A stretch of DNA of 64,000 nt from Promethearchaeota archaeon. Lineage in GTDB: Archaea; Asgardarchaeota; Lokiarchaeia; Sigyniarchaeales; SOKP01. Below, piece by piece: positions 19,060-46,168 of the stretch. How positions within the stretch are numbered: position 1 is the first letter of the stretch; each line of letters begins with the position of its first letter. The stretch spans positions 1 through 64,000 of the forward strand of contig JAFGGO010000114.1 in NCBI GenBank assembly GCA_016930515.1, given 5' to 3'. Both the position numbers and the translations under genes were made by a program. Under the pieces are notes generated by a model, which had not been told where the DNA came from, did no database searches, and worked only from the letters and a program-made list of their open reading frames with translations.

Positions 19060-20331
19060 TTAATCAGACCACAGGCGAGCCAGGTTAAGTATGACTTCGG
19101 TGGCTTTCTGAAGTGCTAATGTCGGAATATATTCCTTTTTGGAATGGAAAAGAAGCCCACCTGCAAATATATTAGGTGTTGGAATTCCCTGAGCGCTCAA
19201 GGCGGCACCATCCGTACCTCCTCTAATCGAATGAACATTTACATCGATTCCAGCCTGCTCAATTGCCTTCTTAGCCATATCTATCGCTTTTTCTTCTTTT
19301 TCTAAGAACGATTTCATGTTCTGATATTGATGCGAAAAGTTAAGATCGATCTGTAAGCCCTTATAATTTTGCTCGTATTTACTTTTCATTGTTTTGAGAT
19401 GTTCCATTCGTTTCTGGTTGTTATTTTCTTCATAATCTCGAATGATTATATCAGCAATAGCTCGTTCTTCCGTTCCCGATAATTTTGATAAGTGATAAAA
19501 GCCCTCCCTCCCTTCAGTTCGCTCAGGACTCTCACTTTCGGGAATCTCGGCGAGAAACCTACTTGCTAGATGGATTGCATTTACCATGAGCCCCTTTGCG
19601 TGGCCTGGATGTACGCTAAGCCCTCTAAATTCGATCGTGACATTCCACGCGTCGAAACATTCGATTTCTAATTTTCCCATTTCTGAGCCGTCCATCGTGT
19701 AACAGATTTTTGGCAGATAGTCTTTATTAATTTTAATGGTCCCTTTTCCAATTTCCTCGTCAGGAGTAAAACAGACGACAATTGGACCATGTTTAAGCTC
19801 TTTATACTTCTTCCAAGCAGCACATGCTGTTACAATTTCAGCAATTCCTGCCTTATCGTCTGCCCCTAGTAGCGTGTTTCCTTGCGAAGTGATGATATCC
19901 AATCCTATATAATCCTCTAATTGATGGGAATCTTTTATACTTAAAGATAAATCCTGATTTTTAGAAAATAAAATTTCCCTTCCATCATAATTTTCGTGAA
20001 TTACGGGCACGACATTTTCCCCGCTCACTGCAGGAGAAGTGTCAAGATGTGCAATAAAACCAATAGGCTCGAAATGTTCCAAACCATTACTTGCGGGAAC
20101 ATTAGCGTAGACATATCCAAATTCGTCTTGAATTACATTTTTTAATCCTAAATCAATCAATTCCTTCACGAGTATTTTTCCAAACTCAATTTGGTTCGAA
20201 GTCGAAGGAATTGTAGAAGAATTTTTGCTTGAAGAGGTGCCTATTTTTACATAATCACAAAAACGCTTAACTGTTTCTTTTAAAAGGAAAGTCTGAATTT
20301 CTTTAGATAATTCCATGTAATTATTATTCAT
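19060..20331 (-). CDS. pepT: Peptidase T (M20B tripeptidase)
   Basis: IGFIAHLDT, TLLGADDKAGIAEI, FTPDEEIG, HPGHAKGLMVNA, IRGGTDG, FHSKKEY. Confidence 0.95.
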   Translation of the reverse strand: MNNNYMELSKEIQTFLLKETVKRFCDYVKIGTSSSKNSSTIPSTSNQIEFGKILVKELIDLGLKNVIQDEFGYVYANVPASNGLEHFEPIGFIAHLDTSPAVSGENVVPVIHENYDGREILFSKNQDLSLSIKDSHQLEDYIGLDIITSQGNTLLGADDKAGIAEIVTACAAWKKYKELKHGPIVVCFTPDEEIGKGTIKINKDYLPKICYTMDGSEMGKLEIECFDAWNVTIEFRGLSVHPGHAKGLMVNAIHLASRFLAEIPESESPERTEGREGFYHLSKLSGTEERAIADIIIRDYEENNNQKRMEHLKTMKSKYEQNYKGLQIDLNFSHQYQNMKSFLEKEEKAIDMAKKAIEQAGIDVNVHSIRGGTDGAALSAQGIPTPNIFAGGLLFHSKKEYIPTLALQKATEVILNLARLWSD

Positions 20332-20394
20332 TCACAGTTAATTATTTTTACTCTTGTTAGAATTAACTTAAAAAGAATAATTAAAAAAATAAAA

Positions 20395-20439
20395 AGAGGT
20401 GCTTGGTTGATTAAATCAATCTAGCAATCGCCCTCCTCT
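20395..20439. other. GC-enriched stem-loop in AT-rich intergenic DNA, followed on the minus strand by T runs (terminator or structured RNA)
   Basis: Nested pairings AGAGG/CCTCT, TGCT/AGCA and TTGATT/AATCAA. Confidence 0.4.
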
Positions 20440-20480
20440 ATAACCCTTGTACTGTCACGCCTGGATTTAATAAAAAAAAT

Positions 20481-21167
20481 TTACCAAATTTCGAATTTTT
20501 CGTCTAGTTGTAAACCGTATCCTTTGATTCCAAACACAAGCAAATACGGAATGACGAGATCAAAAACACTTTGATACAAATTAATGATCATAGATCCGAT
20601 AAATATCGCCATCCAACCATTAATCTCAGGCATTCCAAAAATTTCTAAATTTACAAAATCTACATATCCTTGAGTTACAATCATAAATACTGCAACATTA
20701 ACTAGAAACATTAGAAAGCACCTGACTAAAATGCTTAAAACGCTTGTAAGTGCGAAATTTTTTGGTTTTTTCAAAATTTTACTGCCATTTTCGCTTTTAT
20801 AAAGCTTTAATATTAATACCGGAACAATTATTAAAGGAATCGTTGCTGCAAATTTCATTACGGGTCCGATCCAGCCATATTGATTCGTATCAAAGGGTAA
20901 AAGGGTAAAAGCGCCTATAATCAAGCTCAAAACGCCCGCTCTTGGACCAAAAATGTAAAAACAAGCGATCCAAATTATAGCAATAAATTCAAATACCGCT
21001 ATTCCCCATCCAGGAACCCTCACCAAATAGGGCGTGGTCAATGCCGATATAATTAAACTCAAGGCTCCAAAGATTGCGGCACCAGCAATTTCTAAGGTGT
21101 ATTGTGTTCTTTTAGACCTTGTTGATTCAAATTCGTCAATTTTTTTTTCTGTTGAATTCAATGTCAT
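20481..21167 (-). CDS. ECF transporter S-component-like membrane protein
   Basis: IAGAAIFGALSLII N-terminal helix, FGPRAG motif, about 6 TM helices. Substrate not determinable. Confidence 0.7.
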   Translation of the reverse strand: MTLNSTEKKIDEFESTRSKRTQYTLEIAGAAIFGALSLIISALTTPYLVRVPGWGIAVFEFIAIIWIACFYIFGPRAGVLSLIIGAFTLLPFDTNQYGWIGPVMKFAATIPLIIVPVLILKLYKSENGSKILKKPKNFALTSVLSILVRCFLMFLVNVAVFMIVTQGYVDFVNLEIFGMPEINGWMAIFIGSMIINLYQSVFDLVIPYLLVFGIKGYGLQLDEKFEIW

Positions 21168-21443
21168 TTTTTATCGTTTTTTGATGATGTTTATTGTTAA
21201 GAAAAAAAATTAACTCAAACATATAAATACTCTCCAAAGAGTGATTTAATTATTATGTGGCTTTTTATGGGCATTTCTCCGTATTAAGAGATTCAATAAA
21301 GATTTAGGATGATTATATATACCAATTACTATTTTTTATCAAATTTATAGAATAATATTAAAATATATCAGCTTTTTTTAATAGTTGTATCTACTCATCT
21401 TTGGAGATTTATAGAGTTATAAAATATTCTTTATGTGAAGAAT

Positions 21444-37746: not shown

Positions 37747-38031
37747 ATGGATAAGCTAGCAGATAAGCTTTCTCCAGAGCTTCAAGAAAAAATAGGAAAA
37801 AGCGTGGAAAAAGTATTTTCTAAAATGCTTGAAAAAGCATCAAAAGGAGAATCAGTAGAAGGTTTAATAAAAGCATTACTCGTAGAAAAAGTAATGAACA
37901 TGGTTGGTGCTCTCATCAAGCGTCCCGTCGTTAAAAAATTAGCTAAAGTGGCAGTAAAAAAAAGAGTGGATACCATGTGGGAGAAAAGAAAGGACCAACT
38001 ACTTTCGAAGATAAAAATAGAACTCCCTTAA
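37747..38031 (+). CDS. Basic amphipathic-helical hypothetical protein (94 aa)
   Basis: Strong SD AGGAGG. K/L/V-rich helices; 4-nt convergent overlap with the ligase gene. Confidence 0.7.
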   Translation: MDKLADKLSPELQEKIGKSVEKVFSKMLEKASKGESVEGLIKALLVEKVMNMVGALIKRPVVKKLAKVAVKKRVDTMWEKRKDQLLSKIKIELP

Positions 38032-39749
38032 TTGGTTCTATTTCGTAATTGTTTTTTATCAATGTTACCTTCAGCAGTTAAGGGTAAATCGTCTACAAAT
38101 TGAATGATTTTTGGTACTTCGTACGGAGAACATCGTTTTCGGGCAAAATCCTCGATTTCTTCCTTGAGTGATTTCTCATCTTTATCTGTTTGATAATCTT
38201 CATCTATTTTAATAAAAGCTTTCACGATTTCTGAACCAGGCCGTTTTGGATTTGGAACGCCAATTATTGCGAGGTTATCAATGGCGGGATGCCTATAAAT
38301 TGTTTCTTCGACTTTCTTTGAAAAAACCTTGTATCCCGATACGATTATCATATCCTTACTTCGATCCACTATCTTGAGATATCCCTCTTCGTCCATCACG
38401 GCAATGTCGCCCGTGTGAAAAAAGCCTTCTTCATCAATCGCGTTCTTCGTTTCTTCGGGCTTGTTGTAATAGCCCTGCATTACTTGCGGACCTCTAACAA
38501 AGATTTCTCCAGGAGCTCCTAAAGGTACTTCTTTATTAGAAATAACATCCACGATCTTGATCTCAGTATTCATAATGGGCAAACCAATCGACCCGGGTTT
38601 TTTCTTTCCCTTAAAAGGATTAATGGTGATTACCGGAGAAGTTTCGGTCATGCCGTATAATTCTAATAATTTTCCCTCCCCGATCACGGATTCTAAATCT
38701 TCGTAGATTTCAAGAGGGAAAGGAGCTGCGGATGTGAAGCAATATTTTAGATTGGAAAAGTCAAGTTTTTTGAAATTTTCGTTATTAAGTAAGAGTTGGT
38801 AAAGAACAGGAACATTAGTTATTATTGAGGGTCGATTATTTTTTAGAGCATCAATGATATAGTTGATATCACGAGGGTCCGGCACGAGTACTTGTTTCTG
38901 AGCGTTAAACAAGCAATTTAAGCAGAAAGACAATCCAGCTATGTGAAAAAAAGGGAAACCAGTGCAAGCAACGTCCTCTCCTCTTTTTAATCCAAACCAT
39001 TCATTTAATATCACGAGGTTTGAAAGAATATTCGAATGAGTTAACATTGCACCTTTTGGGGGTCCCGTCGTGCCACCCGTATATTGTATGCAAGCAATAG
39101 CGGAAGCGTCATGATCCACATCTAACGGTGTCGAGGGATATTTTTCTAAGATATCTTCGTGAAAATCCAGAAGACCTTTCCGGAAGAGTGGTTTTATTCG
39201 ATTTTTCGTGTATCTACTTTTAAGAGTGTCCGAATCGCTTCTAAATTTTGATATAAAAGCATTGAAATCGCTAATAACAACGAGTTTTAATTGAGGAAGA
39301 GTAGATATAATTTTTTCAACTCGATTAACAAAGTAAGTATCTAGCGTTACGAGTGCAACCTTTTTTCCTGCTTCTAATATATCGCTGAGTTGGTATTGGA
39401 TTTGAACATCTCTAGAAAGAATGCTAACGCCCGAGACGATACAACCCGCTTTTAAGGTTCCTATTAAAGCTATTACATATTCGATATTATTCGGTAAGTG
39501 GATCGCAACCACGTCTCCCTCTTCTAATCCGTTCTCGAGTAATGCGTGGGCAAACTGATTTGAATATGCGTTTAATTGATTGAAAGTAAGTTCCACTCCT
39601 AAAAATTCTAGCGCGATCTTGTCTGGAAAATCGTCTATAGATTTTTGAATTGCGTTAGCAATCGAACCTAACGATTCCCACCTATCAGGATCCAAGTCCT
39701 CAAGACCTTCGTCCCAATATTTTTTCCAAAATCGATCTTCATGCGACAT
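38028..39749 (-). CDS. Long-chain fatty acid-CoA ligase family protein (A10 Lys replaced by Asn)
   Basis: QYTGGTTGPPKGA, YGMTETSP, FHTGD, DRSKDMIIVSGYKVF; C-terminal LPLTAEGNIDKK. Confidence 0.93.
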   Translation of the reverse strand: MSHEDRFWKKYWDEGLEDLDPDRWESLGSIANAIQKSIDDFPDKIALEFLGVELTFNQLNAYSNQFAHALLENGLEEGDVVAIHLPNNIEYVIALIGTLKAGCIVSGVSILSRDVQIQYQLSDILEAGKKVALVTLDTYFVNRVEKIISTLPQLKLVVISDFNAFISKFRSDSDTLKSRYTKNRIKPLFRKGLLDFHEDILEKYPSTPLDVDHDASAIACIQYTGGTTGPPKGAMLTHSNILSNLVILNEWFGLKRGEDVACTGFPFFHIAGLSFCLNCLFNAQKQVLVPDPRDINYIIDALKNNRPSIITNVPVLYQLLLNNENFKKLDFSNLKYCFTSAAPFPLEIYEDLESVIGEGKLLELYGMTETSPVITINPFKGKKKPGSIGLPIMNTEIKIVDVISNKEVPLGAPGEIFVRGPQVMQGYYNKPEETKNAIDEEGFFHTGDIAVMDEEGYLKIVDRSKDMIIVSGYKVFSKKVEETIYRHPAIDNLAIIGVPNPKRPGSEIVKAFIKIDEDYQTDKDEKSLKEEIEDFARKRCSPYEVPKIIQFVDDLPLTAEGNIDKKQLRNRTN

Positions 39750-39904
39750 TTGGACTTAAAAAATTACGATTTAATCTCTATTTGTTTAACCAAAGAATAA
39801 ATAATTAAAGAATTGGTGTTATAAATTTCTTTTTAAAGTTCCATCGAACAATATTCAAACTCTCATTCACACTGATTATTCGTTTTGTTTAATCACTAAA
39901 AAAA

Positions 39905-41725
39905 CTATTTCTTTCTATTTTTCACAGCATCATAAGTATTTGCCACAATATCCTCATCAAGCCATTCTTCTTTGAGGAGAAATCGTTGGATGAACTGGTT
40001 TGGATTCTTTGGAATTTCTGTTCTAAATTCAATATATCTAGGAACCATAAAGTACGCAAGTTTTTCTTTCATAAACTCGTACAATTGCTCGTATGAAAGC
40101 GCTCCTTTTTTCTTTTGTACAACACATATTTTTAATTCTTTTTTTTGGGTTGTTTTGTCTATAACCTCAAAAACTGCACTTTCTACAACAAGTGGATGAG
40201 AATTTGCAACACGCTCAACATCCATAGCGAAAAAAATTTCGTTATTACGTTCGATCATATCGTCCTTTCTTCCCAAGAAATAGATATAGCCCTCGTGATC
40301 TTTATAACCAAAATCACCTGTAAATACCCAGCGGTCTGGCCCAATTTTCATTGAAGTATCGTCTTCCAAGTTATAATACTCGAATTGAACGGGTAATTTC
40401 GCTCGCGAACATATTTCACCGATGTTATCTCTACCAGGGGGTAGCTCGTTTCCTTTCGAATCTACTATCTTTATCTCGTATCCTTTAGCAGGTTTTCCTA
40501 CTGAACCGCTTTTACCGCCTTTCGAACCCAAGATATTCATGGCTATTCCCACGCCTTCGATTAAGGTCCAAAATTCAATTATTTGGATTCCAAACCTTCT
40601 TTCTATCGTATCCCATATGGTTTTCAAGGCTCCTGGACCAAATGCGTATTTAATCGAGTGTTTTCTCTCTTTTTCTGAAGGAGGTTGATTAACTAGTTCA
40701 GACAAATACGCAGAATAATAACAAAAACAATCGGGCTTATATCGATCAATATCGTCCCAAAAGGTGTTCACATCGAATTTTTCAGTTAGCACGATTGATT
40801 TATTATAATACATTGCAGGAATTACGATTAAATATCTCGCTAGCGCTTGAGCTAAAGGTAATGGACAATAGAACTTGTTCGGTCCGAGGCCAGGTCCTAA
40901 TTCTTCAAATTCTCTTCCTACAGTAATACCAGATAGCGTGTAAAAGTTCCAATAAAAAACACCTTTCGGATTTCCTGTGGTTCCAGAAGTGTAAGAAATT
41001 TCAAGTGGAGAATGACTTCTAATGTCGATGTTTGGATTAGAATCGTCTTCTGATATAATTTCATTGAAATCTATTTCGTCATCATTAAAAATATGTGTTT
41101 TTGGAACATTTCGAATAATAATCGTCGAAATATTTTTGTAATTATCCCTATATTCTTTAAAAAACTTGTAAAATTCGTAGTCGATAATTATGATCTCAGT
41201 ATCGCTGTTTTTTAAGATGTATTCTATAATTGACAATCGAAATGACATGTTGATTGAAACGAACATGGCACCTATTTTCGCGATTGCAAACCAGGTAAAA
41301 AGTATTTCAGGACAGTTTGGGAACAATACGGCTATTTTAGGGGTTTTTAACTTTAACTTTTCGAGTAATTTTAAAAGTCCATTTGCATACCTGTTTGAAA
41401 TGTTATTTACATCTTGATAAGAATAAACCTGATCCTTGAAATACAGGAATGGCAAACCTTTATTCAATAAGGCTTTATCCTCCACAATTCTTGCAACAGT
41501 AGCGTCTTCAATTCCAAACCTTTCAGTAATCTCGTGTAAATCATAACTTTTTTTTATAATAATACTTCCTCCCCTGAGCTCTACATTGACTTCTTCTTTA
41601 TCCCTAAACGGAAAAGAAGGATCTTTCGATATTTTACTAGGAATATAAACCCATAGACTGCTATAACCTCGATTTCCTGATTTTTTCTTCGATATCTTCC
41701 CTTTACCCGATTTCACAATTTTCAC
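39905..41725 (-). CDS. AbrB/MazE-type DNA-binding domain fused to a degenerate CaiC-like acyl-CoA ligase
   Basis: N-terminal YSSLWVYIPSKISKDPSFPFRDKEEVNVELRGGSIIIKK. ANL motifs SYTSGTTGNPKG, FTGDFG and GRKDDMI are present; A5 reads FWTLIE and A10 reads PKNPNQFIQR. Confidence 0.88.
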   Translation of the reverse strand: MKIVKSGKGKISKKKSGNRGYSSLWVYIPSKISKDPSFPFRDKEEVNVELRGGSIIIKKSYDLHEITERFGIEDATVARIVEDKALLNKGLPFLYFKDQVYSYQDVNNISNRYANGLLKLLEKLKLKTPKIAVLFPNCPEILFTWFAIAKIGAMFVSINMSFRLSIIEYILKNSDTEIIIIDYEFYKFFKEYRDNYKNISTIIIRNVPKTHIFNDDEIDFNEIISEDDSNPNIDIRSHSPLEISYTSGTTGNPKGVFYWNFYTLSGITVGREFEELGPGLGPNKFYCPLPLAQALARYLIVIPAMYYNKSIVLTEKFDVNTFWDDIDRYKPDCFCYYSAYLSELVNQPPSEKERKHSIKYAFGPGALKTIWDTIERRFGIQIIEFWTLIEGVGIAMNILGSKGGKSGSVGKPAKGYEIKIVDSKGNELPPGRDNIGEICSRAKLPVQFEYYNLEDDTSMKIGPDRWVFTGDFGYKDHEGYIYFLGRKDDMIERNNEIFFAMDVERVANSHPLVVESAVFEVIDKTTQKKELKICVVQKKKGALSYEQLYEFMKEKLAYFMVPRYIEFRTEIPKNPNQFIQRFLLKEEWLDEDIVANTYDAVKNRKK

Positions 41726-41891
41726 AATGATTTTTTACTTAAGTACTTTTATGATTAGTTCGTCAAAAAAGATTACTAATTTTCTTCGAAATATTACCAT
41801 TATAATTGAAAAATCTGAGAATAAGAAGAAAAAAGAATTTTTATTTTTTTTGTAATAAAAATAAATACGTTAGAACAATGCAATGTCTAAT

Positions 41892-43895
41892 TTATATGGG
41901 AACATCTCGATATTGGTCCTTGAGATTTTCAAAATTATCGAGATTATAATGAGGAAAGTATAAGGAAAACGCATATTCTTTTTGAAATAATGGAGAAGAT
42001 GCAATTTCGTGATATTTTACCTCGTGAGCGATCCTATCAGCAAGATTTCGTTCTTCGTAATCTTTAATGAATAATTGAGCTCCCATTCCAGCAGAATTTC
42101 CTACTTGATAGATTTGCTCGGGAGCGATTTCGGGGAACAATCCTATAAAAGCAGCGTTTTCTTTCTTAATATAGTTCCCAAAACCACCAGCTAAAAGTAC
42201 TTGTTCGAGATCGAGCTTGCTTTTATTCTCCGAACCAAGAAGTAAATTAGCAGAGCTAAGAAAGGCTCCTTTCGCAAGTTGGAGTTGTCCCAAGTCTTTT
42301 TGAGAAATCGTTATTTCCTTAACATCACTTTCTTTTGGATCCAAATCTAACGCTCCAATATCCCATTCTGATTTGTAAACGATGTAGTGGGGTCCGTCCT
42401 CTCGTTTTACGATTCGTCGGTGATTTGCGACTTGATCTGATTTCAAATTAAACTTACCCGCTCTTGTAATTATCTTGGATTTTAACATTTCGGCAACAAT
42501 ATCAATAAGGCCTGATCCACATAAACCGAGGGGATTCACGTTTCCAATGACTCCTATCGATGGTTCCAAGGAGTTCCTATCGATATTTACAGACTCGATG
42601 GCCCCTTCACATCCTCTCATTCCGCATGATATGTGTGCCCCTTCTAGGGCGGAACCTGCGGCGCAGGATCCTGTAACCAAACCATTCTTGTTACCTAAAA
42701 CGAGTTCACCATTGGTTCCTATATCGATCAAGAGCGAATATTTATCGTATTCGTATATTTTCGAAGAAACTATGCATCCAATGGTATCCGTTCCTACATA
42801 ACCTGCAATGACAGGAGGGGAATAAATATTGATATTTGGACTGCAATTTATGCCCATTAATCCCGCACTCACATTAATCGGAGCTTTAAAGACGGGTACA
42901 TAAGGAGAAATGGAAAGATATTCCGTTGGGATCCCAAAAAACATGTGATGTATACCCGTGTTTCCAACGATTGCGATATCTTTAATTTGAGCAAGGGAAA
43001 TTTTTGCTTTTTTGGCGCAATCTTCCATTAGTTCATTAATGGCGCTTATTAATAGGCTTTTTGCGCTCTCTATGCTTTTATGTTTAACAATATATGTGAT
43101 TCTCGAGATTAAATCCTCTCCAATAACAACTTGAGGATTTAACATTGAAGATATTGCCGTAAGTTCTCCCGAATCCAGGTTTATTAGATATCCGACCACG
43201 GTTGTTGTCCCGATATCGAACGCCATGCCATATATATCATTAAAATCGTGTCCAGCCTCTACATCAAAAAGATTCCATTCGTTTTTGCCAGTATTTCTCC
43301 TAAAAAACGCTGTAATTGCACCTTCCTTTTCCCTCATGAGAAACGGAAGCTTTTTAGAAATATTATATAGGCAATCGTTTACCTGCAACGATGAATTATC
43401 GTCGTATAGTTTATGATTGCTCTGATCGCTTAATATTGCGTCATTCAAGCCAGTCAAATCGTTTCTTTGAGTTTTCAAATCCGTTGTTTTGATAACATAT
43501 TCTCGAGCAGATACGAGCGGTTGCATTTTATGTACGATTTCGATGCCTAAGGCGTTCAAATCCGAATCAATTAAAATTTGACTCCCCTTTGGAATTAATG
43601 CCTCGGTTAAATAAACCCTCAAGTCTCCAAGTACTTGAGCCTGGCATGCAAGTCGATAACCATCAGCAATCTTTTCTTTTCCAAGCACCTTTAGTTCTTT
43701 TTCGTTCGGTTCGGAAATTTTTGGTTTCGGGTCCATGATACGGATCAAACATTTCCCACAGGTACCCTTACCAGCGCATAACGCACCAATCGGGTAATTC
43801 AAGGCTAATAAGCCTTCATAAACCGTGGAACCGTTCTCCACGTGCAATCTTTTTGATACGGGTTCCAATATAAGAGTACTTCTTTTATGTTCCAT
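41892..43895 (-). CDS. ATP-dependent reductive activator of corrinoid proteins (RACo/RamA; 2Fe-2S + ASKHA, DUF4445)
   Basis: CAGKGTCGKC...RLACQ ferredoxin; FDIGTTTV, NPQ..GEDLISRI, IDIGTNGE, CAAGSALEG, GLCGSG, QLAKGA, LAGGFG, VGNSAG. Confidence 0.93.
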   Translation of the reverse strand: MEHKRSTLILEPVSKRLHVENGSTVYEGLLALNYPIGALCAGKGTCGKCLIRIMDPKPKISEPNEKELKVLGKEKIADGYRLACQAQVLGDLRVYLTEALIPKGSQILIDSDLNALGIEIVHKMQPLVSAREYVIKTTDLKTQRNDLTGLNDAILSDQSNHKLYDDNSSLQVNDCLYNISKKLPFLMREKEGAITAFFRRNTGKNEWNLFDVEAGHDFNDIYGMAFDIGTTTVVGYLINLDSGELTAISSMLNPQVVIGEDLISRITYIVKHKSIESAKSLLISAINELMEDCAKKAKISLAQIKDIAIVGNTGIHHMFFGIPTEYLSISPYVPVFKAPINVSAGLMGINCSPNINIYSPPVIAGYVGTDTIGCIVSSKIYEYDKYSLLIDIGTNGELVLGNKNGLVTGSCAAGSALEGAHISCGMRGCEGAIESVNIDRNSLEPSIGVIGNVNPLGLCGSGLIDIVAEMLKSKIITRAGKFNLKSDQVANHRRIVKREDGPHYIVYKSEWDIGALDLDPKESDVKEITISQKDLGQLQLAKGAFLSSANLLLGSENKSKLDLEQVLLAGGFGNYIKKENAAFIGLFPEIAPEQIYQVGNSAGMGAQLFIKDYEERNLADRIAHEVKYHEIASSPLFQKEYAFSLYFPHYNLDNFENLKDQYRDVPI

Positions 43896-43983
43896 TTGAG
43901 ATTCCTTTTATCAAAATATTTCCATAAATAAATAAATATCATAATAAATTTAATGTAAAAAAAATAGATTACGAAAAATAATT

Positions 43984-44646
43984 TTAATTTCTTAACCAAA
44001 TATCGATAAAATCGACTCCTTCGATAGCGTCCTTTGTAAAAGCGTCTACTTTCAATTCTTCTGCGATATCTTCAGAAACGGCAGCTCCACCGAGAATTAT
44101 CTTAGGGTTTAACTCCAGATTTCCGTTTTTCAGGAGTTCTACCGCTCTCTTTACGGCGGGCTCCACGGAAGAGAGAAGGAACGATATTCCTATAACTTTA
44201 ACATCTGGCAATTTTGCGGCTTCTAAAAAATCTTCGGGACTTACATCAACACCAAGGTCTATTACATCCATTCCAAACGATTTCATTATAGCAATTAAAA
44301 TACTTTTTCCCAAGCTATGGATATCTCCTTGGATCGTTCCAATAACGACTTTTCCCTTATAATTTCGAGCCCTTGCAAGTTCTTGCCTTTTTTCTTCGTC
44401 AATCGTGAGTAGTCCGTCGCTTAAAGCTTCAGCGGCCAAGATGAGTCCCATCTCTCCCGAATCTTCAAGGCCTTCGAGAACTCCTCTTTTAATTATTTTA
44501 ATGGTCGATATGCCAGCGTCTATAGCGTCCTTTATTACGGCTTTCATGGAATAAAAGTCCAAGGATCTCACGGCGTCTACGATGTTATCGATGTATTGCT
44601 TATCTTCTTGTAAGAGTTCTACATGTTCGGTCTCAACATTCTGCAT
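43984..44646 (-). CDS. Cobalamin-binding corrinoid (methyl-carrier) protein
   Basis: GTIQGDIHSLGK (DxHxxG), DLGVDVSPEDF, IGISFLL, LGGAAV; shortened four-helix cap. Confidence 0.92.
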   Translation of the reverse strand: MQNVETEHVELLQEDKQYIDNIVDAVRSLDFYSMKAVIKDAIDAGISTIKIIKRGVLEGLEDSGEMGLILAAEALSDGLLTIDEEKRQELARARNYKGKVVIGTIQGDIHSLGKSILIAIMKSFGMDVIDLGVDVSPEDFLEAAKLPDVKVIGISFLLSSVEPAVKRAVELLKNGNLELNPKIILGGAAVSEDIAEELKVDAFTKDAIEGVDFIDIWLRN

Positions 44647-44689
44647 TTTTAACCATCTCTTTGTTTAAAATTAAAAAAAAATTGTTGAA

Positions 44690-45496
44690 TTACATGATAA
44701 ACACAATTCCGTGCCACGCAACATAAGGCACGCCAGTCTTATCGTGTTCGGGATTAATGACATATAAGGGCTTCTCTCCGCACTTAACGGCAGTTGCGAA
44801 TACATCAACTCCACACGCTTCTAAAGCTGGGCGCGCTCTTAAATACTGTCGGCACAATTCTCCCTCGAGAGAAGGACATTTTGGAAGTTTTTTTTGTTGC
44901 ATCAAGTCCTTAAAGAACTCTGCAGTCCACATTCCACATCCAACACAAGGACCACCTTTAAAGCCCATTGCGAGGTAATATCCGAGGTAGGTCGCTTCTG
45001 CTTCCACCCACGAAACGATCTCGTTCAGTAAATTCACGTCGCCGTGAACGCCAGTCAAGATACTGGGAAAGATGTTGTTTTCCACTGGCGGGTAAATTGA
45101 AACCATGATGGCGTAGTTATAGCAATCCACGATTTCCCGCATTTCTTCTGCGGTGGGCGAATGTGGCGGACAATTCAAGTTGGAACCGTAACCGAAACAT
45201 ATCGGAACTCGGCATTTCATTCGAACACGCGGATCAATAATGACATTTCTCGGATCGATGAACTTGGCGTGACCAACACATTCAACCTTATACTTCTCAA
45301 TCGCGTCTTTTATATATTTATTGGCTCTCTTCAGGAGCTCGTCGAAAATCTCTTGTTTTGGTTCGAGCTGCATGGGCGAGGGTTCCCTTCCATACTTTTT
45401 TGGCAATACCCTACGCCACTTGTAGGCCATCTTCGAGTCTTCCCGGTCTACATCGGGGATTGGGACTGGTTTAGACGATTTAGTTGGATTTTGCAT
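44690..45496 (-). CDS. DUF2284-type Cys-rich metal-binding protein
   Basis: VRMKC..P.C.GYG.NLNCPPHSP, GGPCVGC, CRQYLRARPALEACGVDVFATA. Confidence 0.85.
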   Translation of the reverse strand: MQNPTKSSKPVPIPDVDREDSKMAYKWRRVLPKKYGREPSPMQLEPKQEIFDELLKRANKYIKDAIEKYKVECVGHAKFIDPRNVIIDPRVRMKCRVPICFGYGSNLNCPPHSPTAEEMREIVDCYNYAIMVSIYPPVENNIFPSILTGVHGDVNLLNEIVSWVEAEATYLGYYLAMGFKGGPCVGCGMWTAEFFKDLMQQKKLPKCPSLEGELCRQYLRARPALEACGVDVFATAVKCGEKPLYVINPEHDKTGVPYVAWHGIVFIM

Positions 45497-45841
45497 TAGT
45501 TTTACCTTGTTTTTCTTGTTAATCTAGTTTTCCTATTGTTTTATCATATTACTAACGTAAACCGAGGCTTAGGTTAGTAGTGTTATAACTAATATTAATC
45601 GATTGTTTAAAAAGATATCTAATTGAATAAGCGTTCATTTGAACCGGCATTCACTTTATTAAAAACGCTCGAATATATTAATAAACCTCCGAATCGGGTA
45701 TTTCAAGCGAATATTTTGATATCTTTTTAATTTCACGGAATATAAACAAGATATAAATTCTCAATTCCATAGTTATAATTTAAAGACAATTTCTGCTCAA
45801 AATCTAATAAATTAGAAGATTTGATACATTCTGAAAATTTA

Positions 45842-46168
45842 TTAGATACATTTAAAAATTAAAAAAAGATTCAAAAAAAAATCTATTTTAGGTGATTTTT
45901 TGATTATTATCGCTGCAACAATAGAGATCCGTGCTAATTCCAGCAAACAGTAGCAAGAAATAGACTCATCTGACTCTGAAAGCTTAACAAAAACAGAGAT
46001 CTCATTTGACAGAGAATTCCCATTTTCGTTAAATGCCATAACTTGGAAGTAATATCTTCTGTTATCCCACCAAGATATATTCGCTCCTCCCGAACCATCG
46101 CTAGTTATCTTGGAGTGATATCGAATATTCGTTGCGTTGTAAATTAGAACGCCCGAGGGATTCCACAT
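45842..46168 (-). pseudogene. Internally deleted remnant of a surface protein
   Basis: A SDGSGGANISWWDNR repeat fragment abuts an FN3 tail (YYFQVMAFNENGNSLSNEISVFV) and a decayed CTERM anchor (SISCY...IVAAIIIKK). Confidence 0.55.

Follow-up and report, generated by a model that had tools for sequence, protein, structure and literature searches.

In a 64,000-nt stretch of an Asgard archaeal genome (contig JAFGGO010000114.1, positions 1 to 64,000; hereafter the window), a gene on the minus strand joins a small N-terminal module to a complete ANL (acyl-CoA ligase) body. The open reading frame 39905-41725 encodes 606 amino acids from its first GTG. However, orthologues begin (MKxGKG) at the position of the second GTG (41716) and the identical database protein is 603 aa long, making 41716 the likelier start. 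The gene is co-directional with, and last in, a unit whose other genes encode a DUF2284 protein, a B12-binding corrinoid protein and a RACo-type activator. The features referred to below are as follows (residues in 606-aa numbering).

39905..41716, minus strand: AbrB-ANL fusion gene, 603 aa from GTG 41716; the frame is open back to GTG 41725 and the stop codon is at 39905-39907
41540..41716, minus strand: predicted N-terminal AbrB/MazE-like swapped-hairpin module, residues 4-62 (β1 10-15, β2 22-27, short helix 30-33, β3 46-51, β4 54-59)
41501..41539, minus strand: linker helix between the module and the ligase body, residues 63-75 (helix 63-70 in the full model; the least conserved segment)
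40262..41500, minus strand: ANL large (N-terminal) domain, residues 76-488
40961..40993, minus strand: A3 P-loop YTSGTTGNPKG, intact in this protein
40556..40573, minus strand: remodelled A5 motif FWTLIE (canonical YGxTE)
39908..40261, minus strand: ANL small (C-terminal) domain, residues 489-606
39992..39994, minus strand: codon of Phe578, at the position of the catalytic A10 lysine
41735..41746: candidate operator in the gene's own promoter, GTACTTAAGTAA on the gene strand, with one mismatch to TTAC-N4-GTAA and its centre 24 nt before GTG 41716
45549..45560: exact operator TTACGTTAGTAA (gene strand), 58 nt upstream of the DUF2284 start codon (45496)
44690..45496, minus strand: DUF2284 gene (PF10050), first gene of the conserved four-gene unit and putative target
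43984..44646, minus strand: B12-binding corrinoid protein (PF02310)
41892..43895, minus strand: RACo-type reductive activator of corrinoid proteins (PF14574, PF17651, Fer2)

Predicted fold of the N-terminal module

The first-pass annotation had described this gene as an AbrB-type DNA-binding domain fused to an apparently dead acyl-CoA ligase, and had named modelling of the N-terminus as AbrB as a condition for that reading. To examine this, we first compared the module with sequence profiles. Pfam's AbrB model (PF04014) did not hit residues 1-75 at E ≤ 10, nor did any other Pfam model. A PF04014 scan of the whole genome recovered 16 other sites but not this gene or its paralogue, and none of 35 family N-modules matched the model, although 4 of them weakly hit a B3-like DNA-binding barrel (best E 0.0035). 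A profile search of PDB sequences returned only a meaningless hit at E = 1. In contrast, profile-profile comparison (hhalign) with 12 PF04014 domains of the same genome gave a match with a probability of 72.9% and E 3.1e-5 over 42 columns in the correct register, covering the IP motif, helix, β3 and β4, which is moderate rather than overwhelming support; HHpred against PDB70 or Pfam was not run.

AlphaFold2 predicted the β-β-α-β-β topology of AbrB both for the module alone (pLDDT 81) and within the full-length model (pLDDT 72-86). Among 48,161 PDB chains, only six reached Z ≥ 2 in a VIA structure comparison, and all six are AbrB-fold proteins: 5itj, VapB1, SpoVT, VapB2, AbrB and C56 (Z 2.2-3.3, RMSD 2.5-5.7 Å over 44-64 residues). 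Similarly, the top 10 Foldseek hits were all MazE, VapB or C56, albeit at E 0.3-0.9. These scores are low, as expected for half of a 50-aa swapped barrel, but are not decisive; dimerization into an interleaved barrel and sequence-specific DNA binding were not assayed, the only evidence on them being the indirect one of a palindromic 12-14 bp operator co-inherited with the gene (below), and contacts between the module and the ligase body were not examined. Consistent with the structural prediction, lysine or arginine occupies positions 10, 14, 31, 34 and 59, at loop and helix positions, in 92-105 of 105 homologues, and five residues (Y21, P29, F38, P39 and F40) are invariant in all 105, arguing that the module is not a chance extension. 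A search for stand-alone or differently fused copies of the module found only contig-end fragments of the same family.

Catalytic motifs across the fused family

The remainder of the protein is an ANL body by both sequence and predicted fold. Pfam detected AMP-binding (PF00501) at residues 88-441 (E 6e-49; 167 bits against a cut-off of 30) and AMP-binding_C (PF13193) at residues 503-576 (E 7e-9; 37 bits against a cut-off of 24.5). The full model had a pLDDT of 89.9, and the best Foldseek hit was 4wv3 (E 5e-38, TM 0.71/0.82), with the model adopting the adenylate-forming conformation. The best NCBIfam matches, PRK06187, PRK06155 and CaiC, all scored far below the curated cut-offs. For CaiC crotonobetaine/carnitine-CoA ligase (NF005947), a label that some sources give homologues, the score was 237.9 bits against an equivalog cut-off of 651, so the protein does not qualify as CaiC.

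Residue-by-residue alignment to solved ligases showed that the P-loop is intact and that the A7 Asp (D471, in TGD), the A8 Arg (R486) and the hinge Asp are kept, whereas the A10 lysine, aligned to the GK of 4wv3 and 5bsw, is replaced by Phe578. The observation made in the first-pass annotation is thereby confirmed, although two of its details were overstated. The A5 motif, which it had called lost, is remodelled: FWTLIE keeps the aromatic residue (Trp) and the Glu, which is invariant in 105 of 105 homologues, while Gly is changed to Thr and Thr to Ile. The A8 Gly is indeed absent from this protein (ERNNEI, where relatives have RRGENI), but many homologues keep a Gly there (50 of 105 or 35 of 105 at the two candidate columns). 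The protein thus has the ANL fold and descent but does not fit the catalytic definition of the superfamily.

It had also been proposed in advance that orthologues be collected to ask whether the fusion and the loss of the A10 lysine co-occur. They do: more than 100 full-length homologues, mostly from Lokiarchaeia and 37-62% identical, form one clade (support 1.0, on a long stem), and the A10 position is non-Lys in 103 of the 105 analysed (L38, F29, R11, M8, E8, Q5, T2, K2, Y1, D1). The unfused sister ligases, which are CaiC-like or PRK06155-type ATP-dependent acyl-CoA ligases with 30-35% identity, lack the N-module and keep LPLFH, YGxTE, RRGENIS and Lys or Arg at A10, while the fused clade is degenerate at A4, A5, A8 and A10. 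A strict P-loop pattern is intact in only 59 of 105 family members. The A10 lysine is described as the key catalytic residue of the adenylation step (PMC8388817). That the enzyme is dead is nevertheless an inference from motifs only, as no ligase activity was measured.

A conserved palindrome upstream of the fusion gene and the DUF2284 operon

We next asked whether a potential operator is inherited with the gene. In 39 loci (580,596 bp, 11% intergenic) we found 65 exact TTAC-N4-GTAA palindromes, of which 57 are intergenic. Of these sites, 26 lie within 200 nt upstream of the fusion gene and 19 upstream of DUF2284, with others upstream of genes for a conserved 171-aa protein, SBP_bac_5 and an ABC permease that neighbour the fusion gene in clade B, one of the other clades of the family. 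Five control patterns with other spacings or half-site order gave 9-14 hits each, mostly coding, and only 0-1 upstream of the gene. An exact site lies within 100 nt of the start in 23 of 38 loci, against a genome density of 0.0016 per 100 nt, and does so across clades whose promoters are otherwise unalignable. As the loci are related, the naive P values overstate the significance, and seven close orthologues have no site within one mismatch in their own promoter.

In the window, the site in the gene's own promoter has one mismatch and on its own is at chance level (26 one-mismatch sites found in the window, 30 expected), but it lies at the same position (-24 to -30) as exact sites in orthologues. 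An exact site precedes DUF2284. Indeed, 29 of 30 orthologous DUF2284-corrinoid-RACo operons carry an exact site upstream, 28 of them at this proximal position, and 9 have a second copy 85-87 bp upstream. A clean negative control could not be made, because close DUF2284 operons lacking the fusion gene were not found where the assembly allows a check; four divergent DUF2284 loci without an adjacent fusion gene have no site. The order DUF2284, corrinoid protein, RACo, fusion gene is kept in 14 of 19 close loci. Across loci the neighbours vary (corrinoid system, CoA-transferases, thiolases, enoate reductase, ABC transporter), and the fusion gene is the only gene common to the different neighbourhoods that carry the motif, no other candidate regulator being conserved there.

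The motif is not enriched genome-wide: there are 65 exact sites in 4.0 Mb, as for other spacings (47-86), and only 11 are intergenic, which fits a local regulator with few sites. An Rfam search of 39700-46000 returned nothing, so no known RNA element explains the palindrome. We consider an RNA hairpin unlikely, since the half-sites are invariant rather than covarying, the stem comprises only 4-5 A/U-rich pairs, and copies recur at about 85-87 bp spacing.

The first-pass annotation had suggested that the gene may control a second ligase directly downstream of it and had named 39750-39904 as a region to test for binding. This region contains no site even with one mismatch, and the second ligase follows the gene only in this genus, so that it is not a conserved target. 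The conserved partner is instead the upstream DUF2284-corrinoid-RACo operon.

A candidate one-component regulator with an enzyme-derived sensor

Taken together, we propose with moderate confidence that the gene encodes a self-regulating, local one-component transcription factor of an undescribed architecture. In this model, two copies of the N-terminal module would pair into the usual dimeric barrel, which reads the palindrome tTTAC(G)-NN-(C)GTAAa (as a duplex, TTACGTACGTAA). Sites in the gene's own promoter suggest autoregulation, and in the closest orthologues a site sits between the TATA-like box and the start codon, suggesting repression; at the DUF2284 promoter, in contrast, the site lies about 12 nt upstream of a TATA-like box. 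The ANL body, descended from CaiC-like acyl-CoA ligases, most likely no longer turns over substrate and probably binds a carboxylic acid, possibly with ATP/AMP or as a CoA ester, that belongs to the regulated pathway. Ligand-driven movement of the ANL domains would then change DNA binding. Our analysis shows the fold, the motif states, the single clade, the operator and its co-inheritance with the gene, whereas DNA binding by this protein, loss of catalysis, the ligand class and the sign of regulation are inferred without experiment, and the motif could belong to another factor whose regulon includes this gene. The interpretation offered in the first-pass annotation, a pseudo-enzyme reused as the ligand-binding module of a transcription factor, is therefore partly supported: the AbrB-type module, the co-occurrence of fusion and lysine loss, and a palindromic operator travelling with the gene agree with it, the second ligase as target is not supported, and a fatty acid as the ligand is untested and has no specific support, the neighbours of the gene being varied.

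One-component regulators with an enzyme-derived sensor (BzdR, RbkR and BirA; a functional class, not a homology family) combine a DNA-binding domain and a sensor in one chain, with a conserved operator in the gene's own and its pathway promoters, and the architecture and operator statistics found here fit this description; ligand-dependent binding was not measured. SpoVT of Bacillus subtilis (PDB 2w1t; Z 3.0, RMSD 2.5 Å over 44 residues) likewise places an AbrB-type swapped hairpin at the N-terminus of a one-component regulator with a C-terminal ligand-type domain. However, its sensor is a GAF domain rather than a ~530-aa two-domain ANL fold, and the present protein is archaeal and not detectable by PF04014. 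In BzdR of Azoarcus sp. CIB, a shikimate-kinase-like domain that lost its activity was recruited as the benzoyl-CoA sensor of a local regulator of an anaerobic acid/CoA-ester pathway (PMC3602430), but both its DNA-binding domain (HTH-XRE) and its enzyme ancestor differ from those described here, where the ligand is unknown. The archaeal wHTH-riboflavin kinase RbkR, whose operators in front of its own gene and pathway genes were predicted in the same way by comparative genomics and then validated (PMC5397151), also joins a DNA-binding domain to a nucleotide-using enzyme with autoregulation. BirA of E. coli is built on the same principle and uses a self-made acyl-adenylate as corepressor, a possible model here. 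RbkR and BirA are active enzymes of different folds, whereas the key adenylation lysine is missing here.

Our literature searches found no description of an AbrB-ANL regulator, of an ANL pseudoenzyme or of any regulator built from an ANL ligase fold, and transcription control in Asgard archaea is almost unexplored. New here is the palindrome in front of the gene and of the DUF2284 operon; the case combines a predicted operator, predicted targets and a natural Lys-less ANL body. If confirmed, it would add a class of one-component regulator and show a natural counterpart of biosensors in which ANL hinge motion has been used as an engineered sensor principle (PMC10590383). Its ligand would also help identify the substrate of the uncharacterized DUF2284-corrinoid-RACo system that it appears to control. 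A further reading, which we regard as tentative, is that this is the founding member of a class in which the large ANL domain rotation, normally part of catalysis, has become the allosteric switch that sets DNA binding by an AbrB-type dimer. In Lokiarchaeia it would be the dedicated switch of an uncharacterized DUF2284/corrinoid/RACo methyl-transfer pathway, sensing that pathway's carboxylate substrate and giving a direct handle on both the ligand and the function of the pathway.

Among the alternatives, a bifunctional "trigger enzyme" of the BirA or RbkR type is less likely but possible. In this case the ANL body would still make an acyl-adenylate or acyl-CoA, slowly or with another residue replacing the A10 lysine, and that product, or the substrate/product ratio, would control DNA binding. 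The intact P-loop, A5 Glu, A7 Asp, A8 Arg and hinge Asp of the window protein, the adenylate-forming conformation of the model and the conservation of the ANL body (83 of 413 columns at 90% or more, as conserved as the N-module) leave room for residual or altered catalysis. Sister ligases often carry Arg rather than Lys at A10, so this subfamily tolerates change there, and the operator evidence applies equally to this reading. On the other hand, the A10 position is not merely changed but unconstrained, the A4 His, A5 Thr and A8 Gly are also relaxed, the P-loop is degenerate in 46 of 105 members, and for BzdR loss of enzyme activity was reported as essential for the regulatory role (PMC3602430).

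It is unlikely that the protein is a metabolic ligase or ligase-like enzyme of the neighbouring pathway whose N-terminal barrel serves oligomerization or protein docking, with the palindrome bound by an unrelated regulator. The position of the gene at the end of a metabolic operon, its location among acyl-CoA metabolism genes in other clades, the absence of a Pfam DNA-binding hit to the module and the low fold scores are compatible with this view. Against it stand the fact that the fusion gene is the only gene shared by all neighbourhoods that carry the palindrome, the presence of the motif in the gene's own promoter across clades, fold hits that are all DNA-binding AbrB-type proteins, the conserved basic residues, and the missing catalytic lysine. 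Finally, although several catalytic motifs are degenerate, a decaying, non-functional ligase gene with a chance N-terminal extension is refuted by the conservation of more than 100 intact full-length homologues without stops and with a shared N-module, two paralogues occurring in this genome alone.

Sequence and family of the fusion protein

The open reading frame at 39905-41725 on the minus strand is real and encodes 606 aa from its first GTG. Because orthologues begin with MKxGKG at the position of the second GTG (41716), and the identical database protein has 603 aa, 41716 is the probable start. The positions discussed below are:

39905-41725, minus strand: fusion gene, probably starting at GTG 41716
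39992-39994, minus strand: codon of Phe578, at the position of the catalytic A10 lysine
38028-39749, minus strand: second, canonical-looking ligase, downstream of the fusion gene
41892-45496, minus strand: DUF2284 > corrinoid protein > RACo unit
41735-41746: palindrome with one mismatch in the promoter of the fusion gene
45549-45560: exact palindrome, 58 nt before the DUF2284 start

Pfam assigned an AMP-binding domain to residues 88-441 and its C-terminal domain to residues 503-576, whereas residues 1-75 hit nothing. NCBIfam placed the body nearest to PRK06187, PRK06155 and CaiC-type ligases, although far below every curated cut-off. To define the state of the catalytic motifs, we aligned the protein to solved ligases. 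The P-loop YTSGTTGNPKG is intact, and the A7 TGD and the A8 Arg are kept. In contrast, A5 reads FWTLIE, in which the Glu and an aromatic residue are kept but the Gly and Thr are lost, the A8 Gly is replaced by Asn, and the A10 lysine by Phe578. The first-pass annotation, which had described a ligase lacking A5, the A8 Gly and the A10 lysine behind an N-terminal AbrB-type domain, was thus correct in what it observed, with the loss of A5 somewhat overstated.

The protein belongs to a conserved family. More than 100 full-length homologues exist (~600 aa, 37-62% identity, 96-100% coverage), most of them from Lokiarchaeia (labelled "Promethearchaeota"), some labelled Hermod-, Thor- and Helarchaeota, and one from a Bathyarchaeota-like MAG. 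In 400 genomes of the phylum, matches fell into two groups: family members score more than 480 bits, start at query residue 2-8 and are almost all in the window's own taxonomic family, while ordinary ligases score 260 bits or less and start at residue ~77. The window's genome contains a second member with 39% identity on another contig (C175, 15936-17711, plus strand), in a different neighbourhood. An exhaustive search revealed the same gap, with 526-667 bits for fused members followed by 397 bits and below. In a tree of the ligase body, the fused members form one clade with support 1.0 on a long stem. One sequence without the N-module, the 544-aa homologue P0127, is nested inside this clade and also lacks the A10 Lys and the A4 His, reflecting either a secondary loss of the module or a mis-called start.

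The predicted AbrB-like module and the state of the ligase body

The N-terminal module is strongly conserved: Y21, P29, F38, P39 and F40 are invariant, and K/R occupies positions 10, 14, 31, 34 and 59 in 92-105 of 105 sequences. AlphaFold2, run on a 35-sequence alignment, predicted a b1-b2-short helix-b3-b4 arrangement followed by a helix (pLDDT 81), and the same elements appear in the full-length model (pLDDT 89.9). An AbrB/SpoVT match in a fold comparison had been set out beforehand as the expectation for this region. We compared the module with known structures and profiles. The ten best Foldseek matches are all MazE, VapB or C56, but at E values of only 0.3-0.9. A Foldseek-independent search of 48,161 PDB representatives returned only six chains with Z>=2, all of them AbrB-fold proteins (the Sso7c4-type 5itj, VapB1, SpoVT, VapB2, AbrB and C56). 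A profile-profile comparison with 12 PF04014 domains of the same genome gave a probability of 73% and an E value of 3.1e-5 in the expected register, although Pfam's own AbrB model does not detect the module. We therefore call it AbrB-like by fold and profile, but not a member of PF04014. A search for stand-alone or differently fused copies found none.

We next asked whether loss of the A10 lysine accompanies the fusion across homologues, a check proposed in advance for the pseudo-enzyme reading. In 105 homologues, the A10 position is L in 38, F in 29, R in 11, M in 8, E in 8, Q in 5, T in 2, K in 2, Y in 1 and D in 1; it is lost and unconstrained. The nearest unfused relatives keep LPLFH (A4), YGxTE (A5), RRGENIS (A8) and K or R at A10, whereas fused members are degenerate at all four motifs and some also in the P-loop, where a strict pattern holds in 59 of 105. 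Yet the body as a whole is about as conserved as the N-module, with mean majority fractions of 0.64 and 0.62 against 0.67. The fold is therefore under selection for something other than canonical adenylation. The A10 Lys is described as the key catalytic residue, contacting the alpha-phosphate in the adenylation conformation (PMC8388817).

Gene neighbourhood and a conserved palindrome

In 14 of 19 close loci, including the window, the gene order is DUF2284 > corrinoid protein > RACo > fusion gene, all on one strand and often preceded by two CoA-transferase subunit genes (PF01144). The three-gene unit in the window has no recognisable methyltransferase gene. Other clades place the fusion gene beside thiolases, an Fe-S/molybdopterin oxidoreductase pair, an OYE-type reductase, a conserved 171-aa protein and an SBP_bac_5 ABC transporter; beside FAD_binding_4/CCG proteins and other ligases; or beside acyl-CoA dehydrogenases. 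The second ligase follows the fusion gene only in this genus. It has intact A3, A5, A7 and A8 motifs but also lacks the A10 lysine, reading LPLTAEGNIDKK with Asn for Lys. This loss is confined to the genus, where five orthologues have N, N, F, L and F, while the 29 matches in the other 25 orthologous loci keep GK(I/V)DKK.

Inspection of the upstream regions revealed a palindrome, TTAC-N4-GTAA, in otherwise unalignable promoters. In 39 loci (580,596 bp, of which 63,011 bp intergenic) we counted 65 exact copies, 57 of them intergenic. Of these copies, 26 lie within 200 nt upstream of the fusion gene and 19 upstream of DUF2284, while others precede the 171-aa gene, the SBP gene and the permease genes of clade B. 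In contrast, five control patterns (spacers of 2, 3, 5 and 6, and reversed half-sites) gave 9-14 hits each, mostly coding, with 0-1 upstream of the gene. An exact site lies within 100 nt of the start in 23 of 38 loci, and a site with at most one mismatch in 29 of 38, against a genome-wide density of 0.0016 per 100 nt. The naive P value of ~1e-54 overstates the significance because the loci are related; however, the sites recur in clades with under 50% protein identity. The extended consensus is tTTAC(G/t)nn(C/a)GTAAa. In the window, no Rfam family matches the region 39700-46000.

Of 30 orthologous DUF2284 operons, 29 have an exact site, 28 of them at the proximal position, and nine have a second exact copy 85-87 bp upstream, about eight helical turns away. 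Each site is followed about 12 nt later by a TATA-like box, TTTTA(T/A)AAAT in the DUF2284 promoters with paired sites (loci L083-L096), so that the pair looks like a duplicated promoter-operator unit. Four divergent DUF2284 loci without an adjacent fusion gene have no site. In the window, the exact site precedes DUF2284, and the one-mismatch site in the fusion gene's own promoter lies at the position of exact sites in orthologues. The region 39750-39904, upstream of the second ligase that the first-pass annotation had suggested as a target and had named for a binding test, contains no site.

Genome-wide the motif is not enriched: 65 sites occur in 4.0 Mb, of which 11 are intergenic. Three of these 11 lie next to genes that neighbour the family in other genomes or in this one, namely DUF2284, a thiolase/PurE-like pair and an SDR-like gene. 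The latter two sites are exact: TTACGTGAGTAA (contig C35, position 19738) lies between a thiolase and a PurE-like gene, and TTACGTGCGTAA (contig C50, position 126) lies before the SDR-like gene. As homologues of these genes neighbour the fusion gene in other genomes (loci L041, L044 and L048), they are candidate regulon members. The second family member of the genome has a one-mismatch palindrome, TTACGATCGTAG, about 78 nt upstream. The 171-aa protein, which has no Pfam match, lies next to the fusion gene in one clade (loci L034-L040, L043, L045 and L047; for example L037, 6344-6856). In most of these loci an exact palindrome sits about 90-115 nt upstream of it, often shared with a divergent SBP_bac_5 ABC-transporter gene.

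A candidate autoregulated transcription factor

The fusion gene is the only gene common to all motif-bearing neighbourhoods. It carries an AbrB-like module with conserved basic residues, and a palindrome suits a dimeric swapped-hairpin domain. The best reading is an autoregulated local transcription factor whose ANL body serves as a ligand sensor; this function is inferred from the motif states, the modelled fold and the distribution of the palindrome, which are what the analysis itself shows. The same logic applies to two known regulators: BzdR, an enzyme-derived sensor whose loss of activity was reported as essential (PMC3602430), and RbkR, an archaeal enzyme-regulator whose operators were predicted in the same way and then validated (PMC5397151). 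Engineered sensors already exploit ANL hinge motion (PMC10590383).

In the closest orthologues' own promoters a site lies between the TATA-like box and the start codon, which suggests autorepression. At the DUF2284 promoter, however, the site lies just upstream of a TATA-like box, so activation is equally possible, and we assign no sign of regulation. The ligand was not identified; a carboxylate or CoA ester of the regulated pathway is the natural guess. The interpretation put forward in the first-pass annotation is thus supported only in part, as a regulator with a ligase-derived sensor remains the best reading whereas a fatty acid as its ligand has no specific support. The main rival is an active trigger enzyme resembling BirA or RbkR, which remains possible because the nucleotide-binding motifs of this protein are intact and the model adopts the adenylate-forming conformation.

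The concept of an enzyme-derived one-component regulator is known, whereas the architecture, the predicted operator and the link to the DUF2284-corrinoid-RACo operon are new; our literature searches found no AbrB-ANL regulator. Elsewhere in the window's genome (contig C7, 19125-21331), two canonical PF04014 AbrB genes (19125-19256 and 21203-21331, minus strand) flank an ordinary 545-aa ANL ligase gene (19380-20915, minus strand), which may represent an unfused AbrB-ligase neighbourhood or a coincidence.
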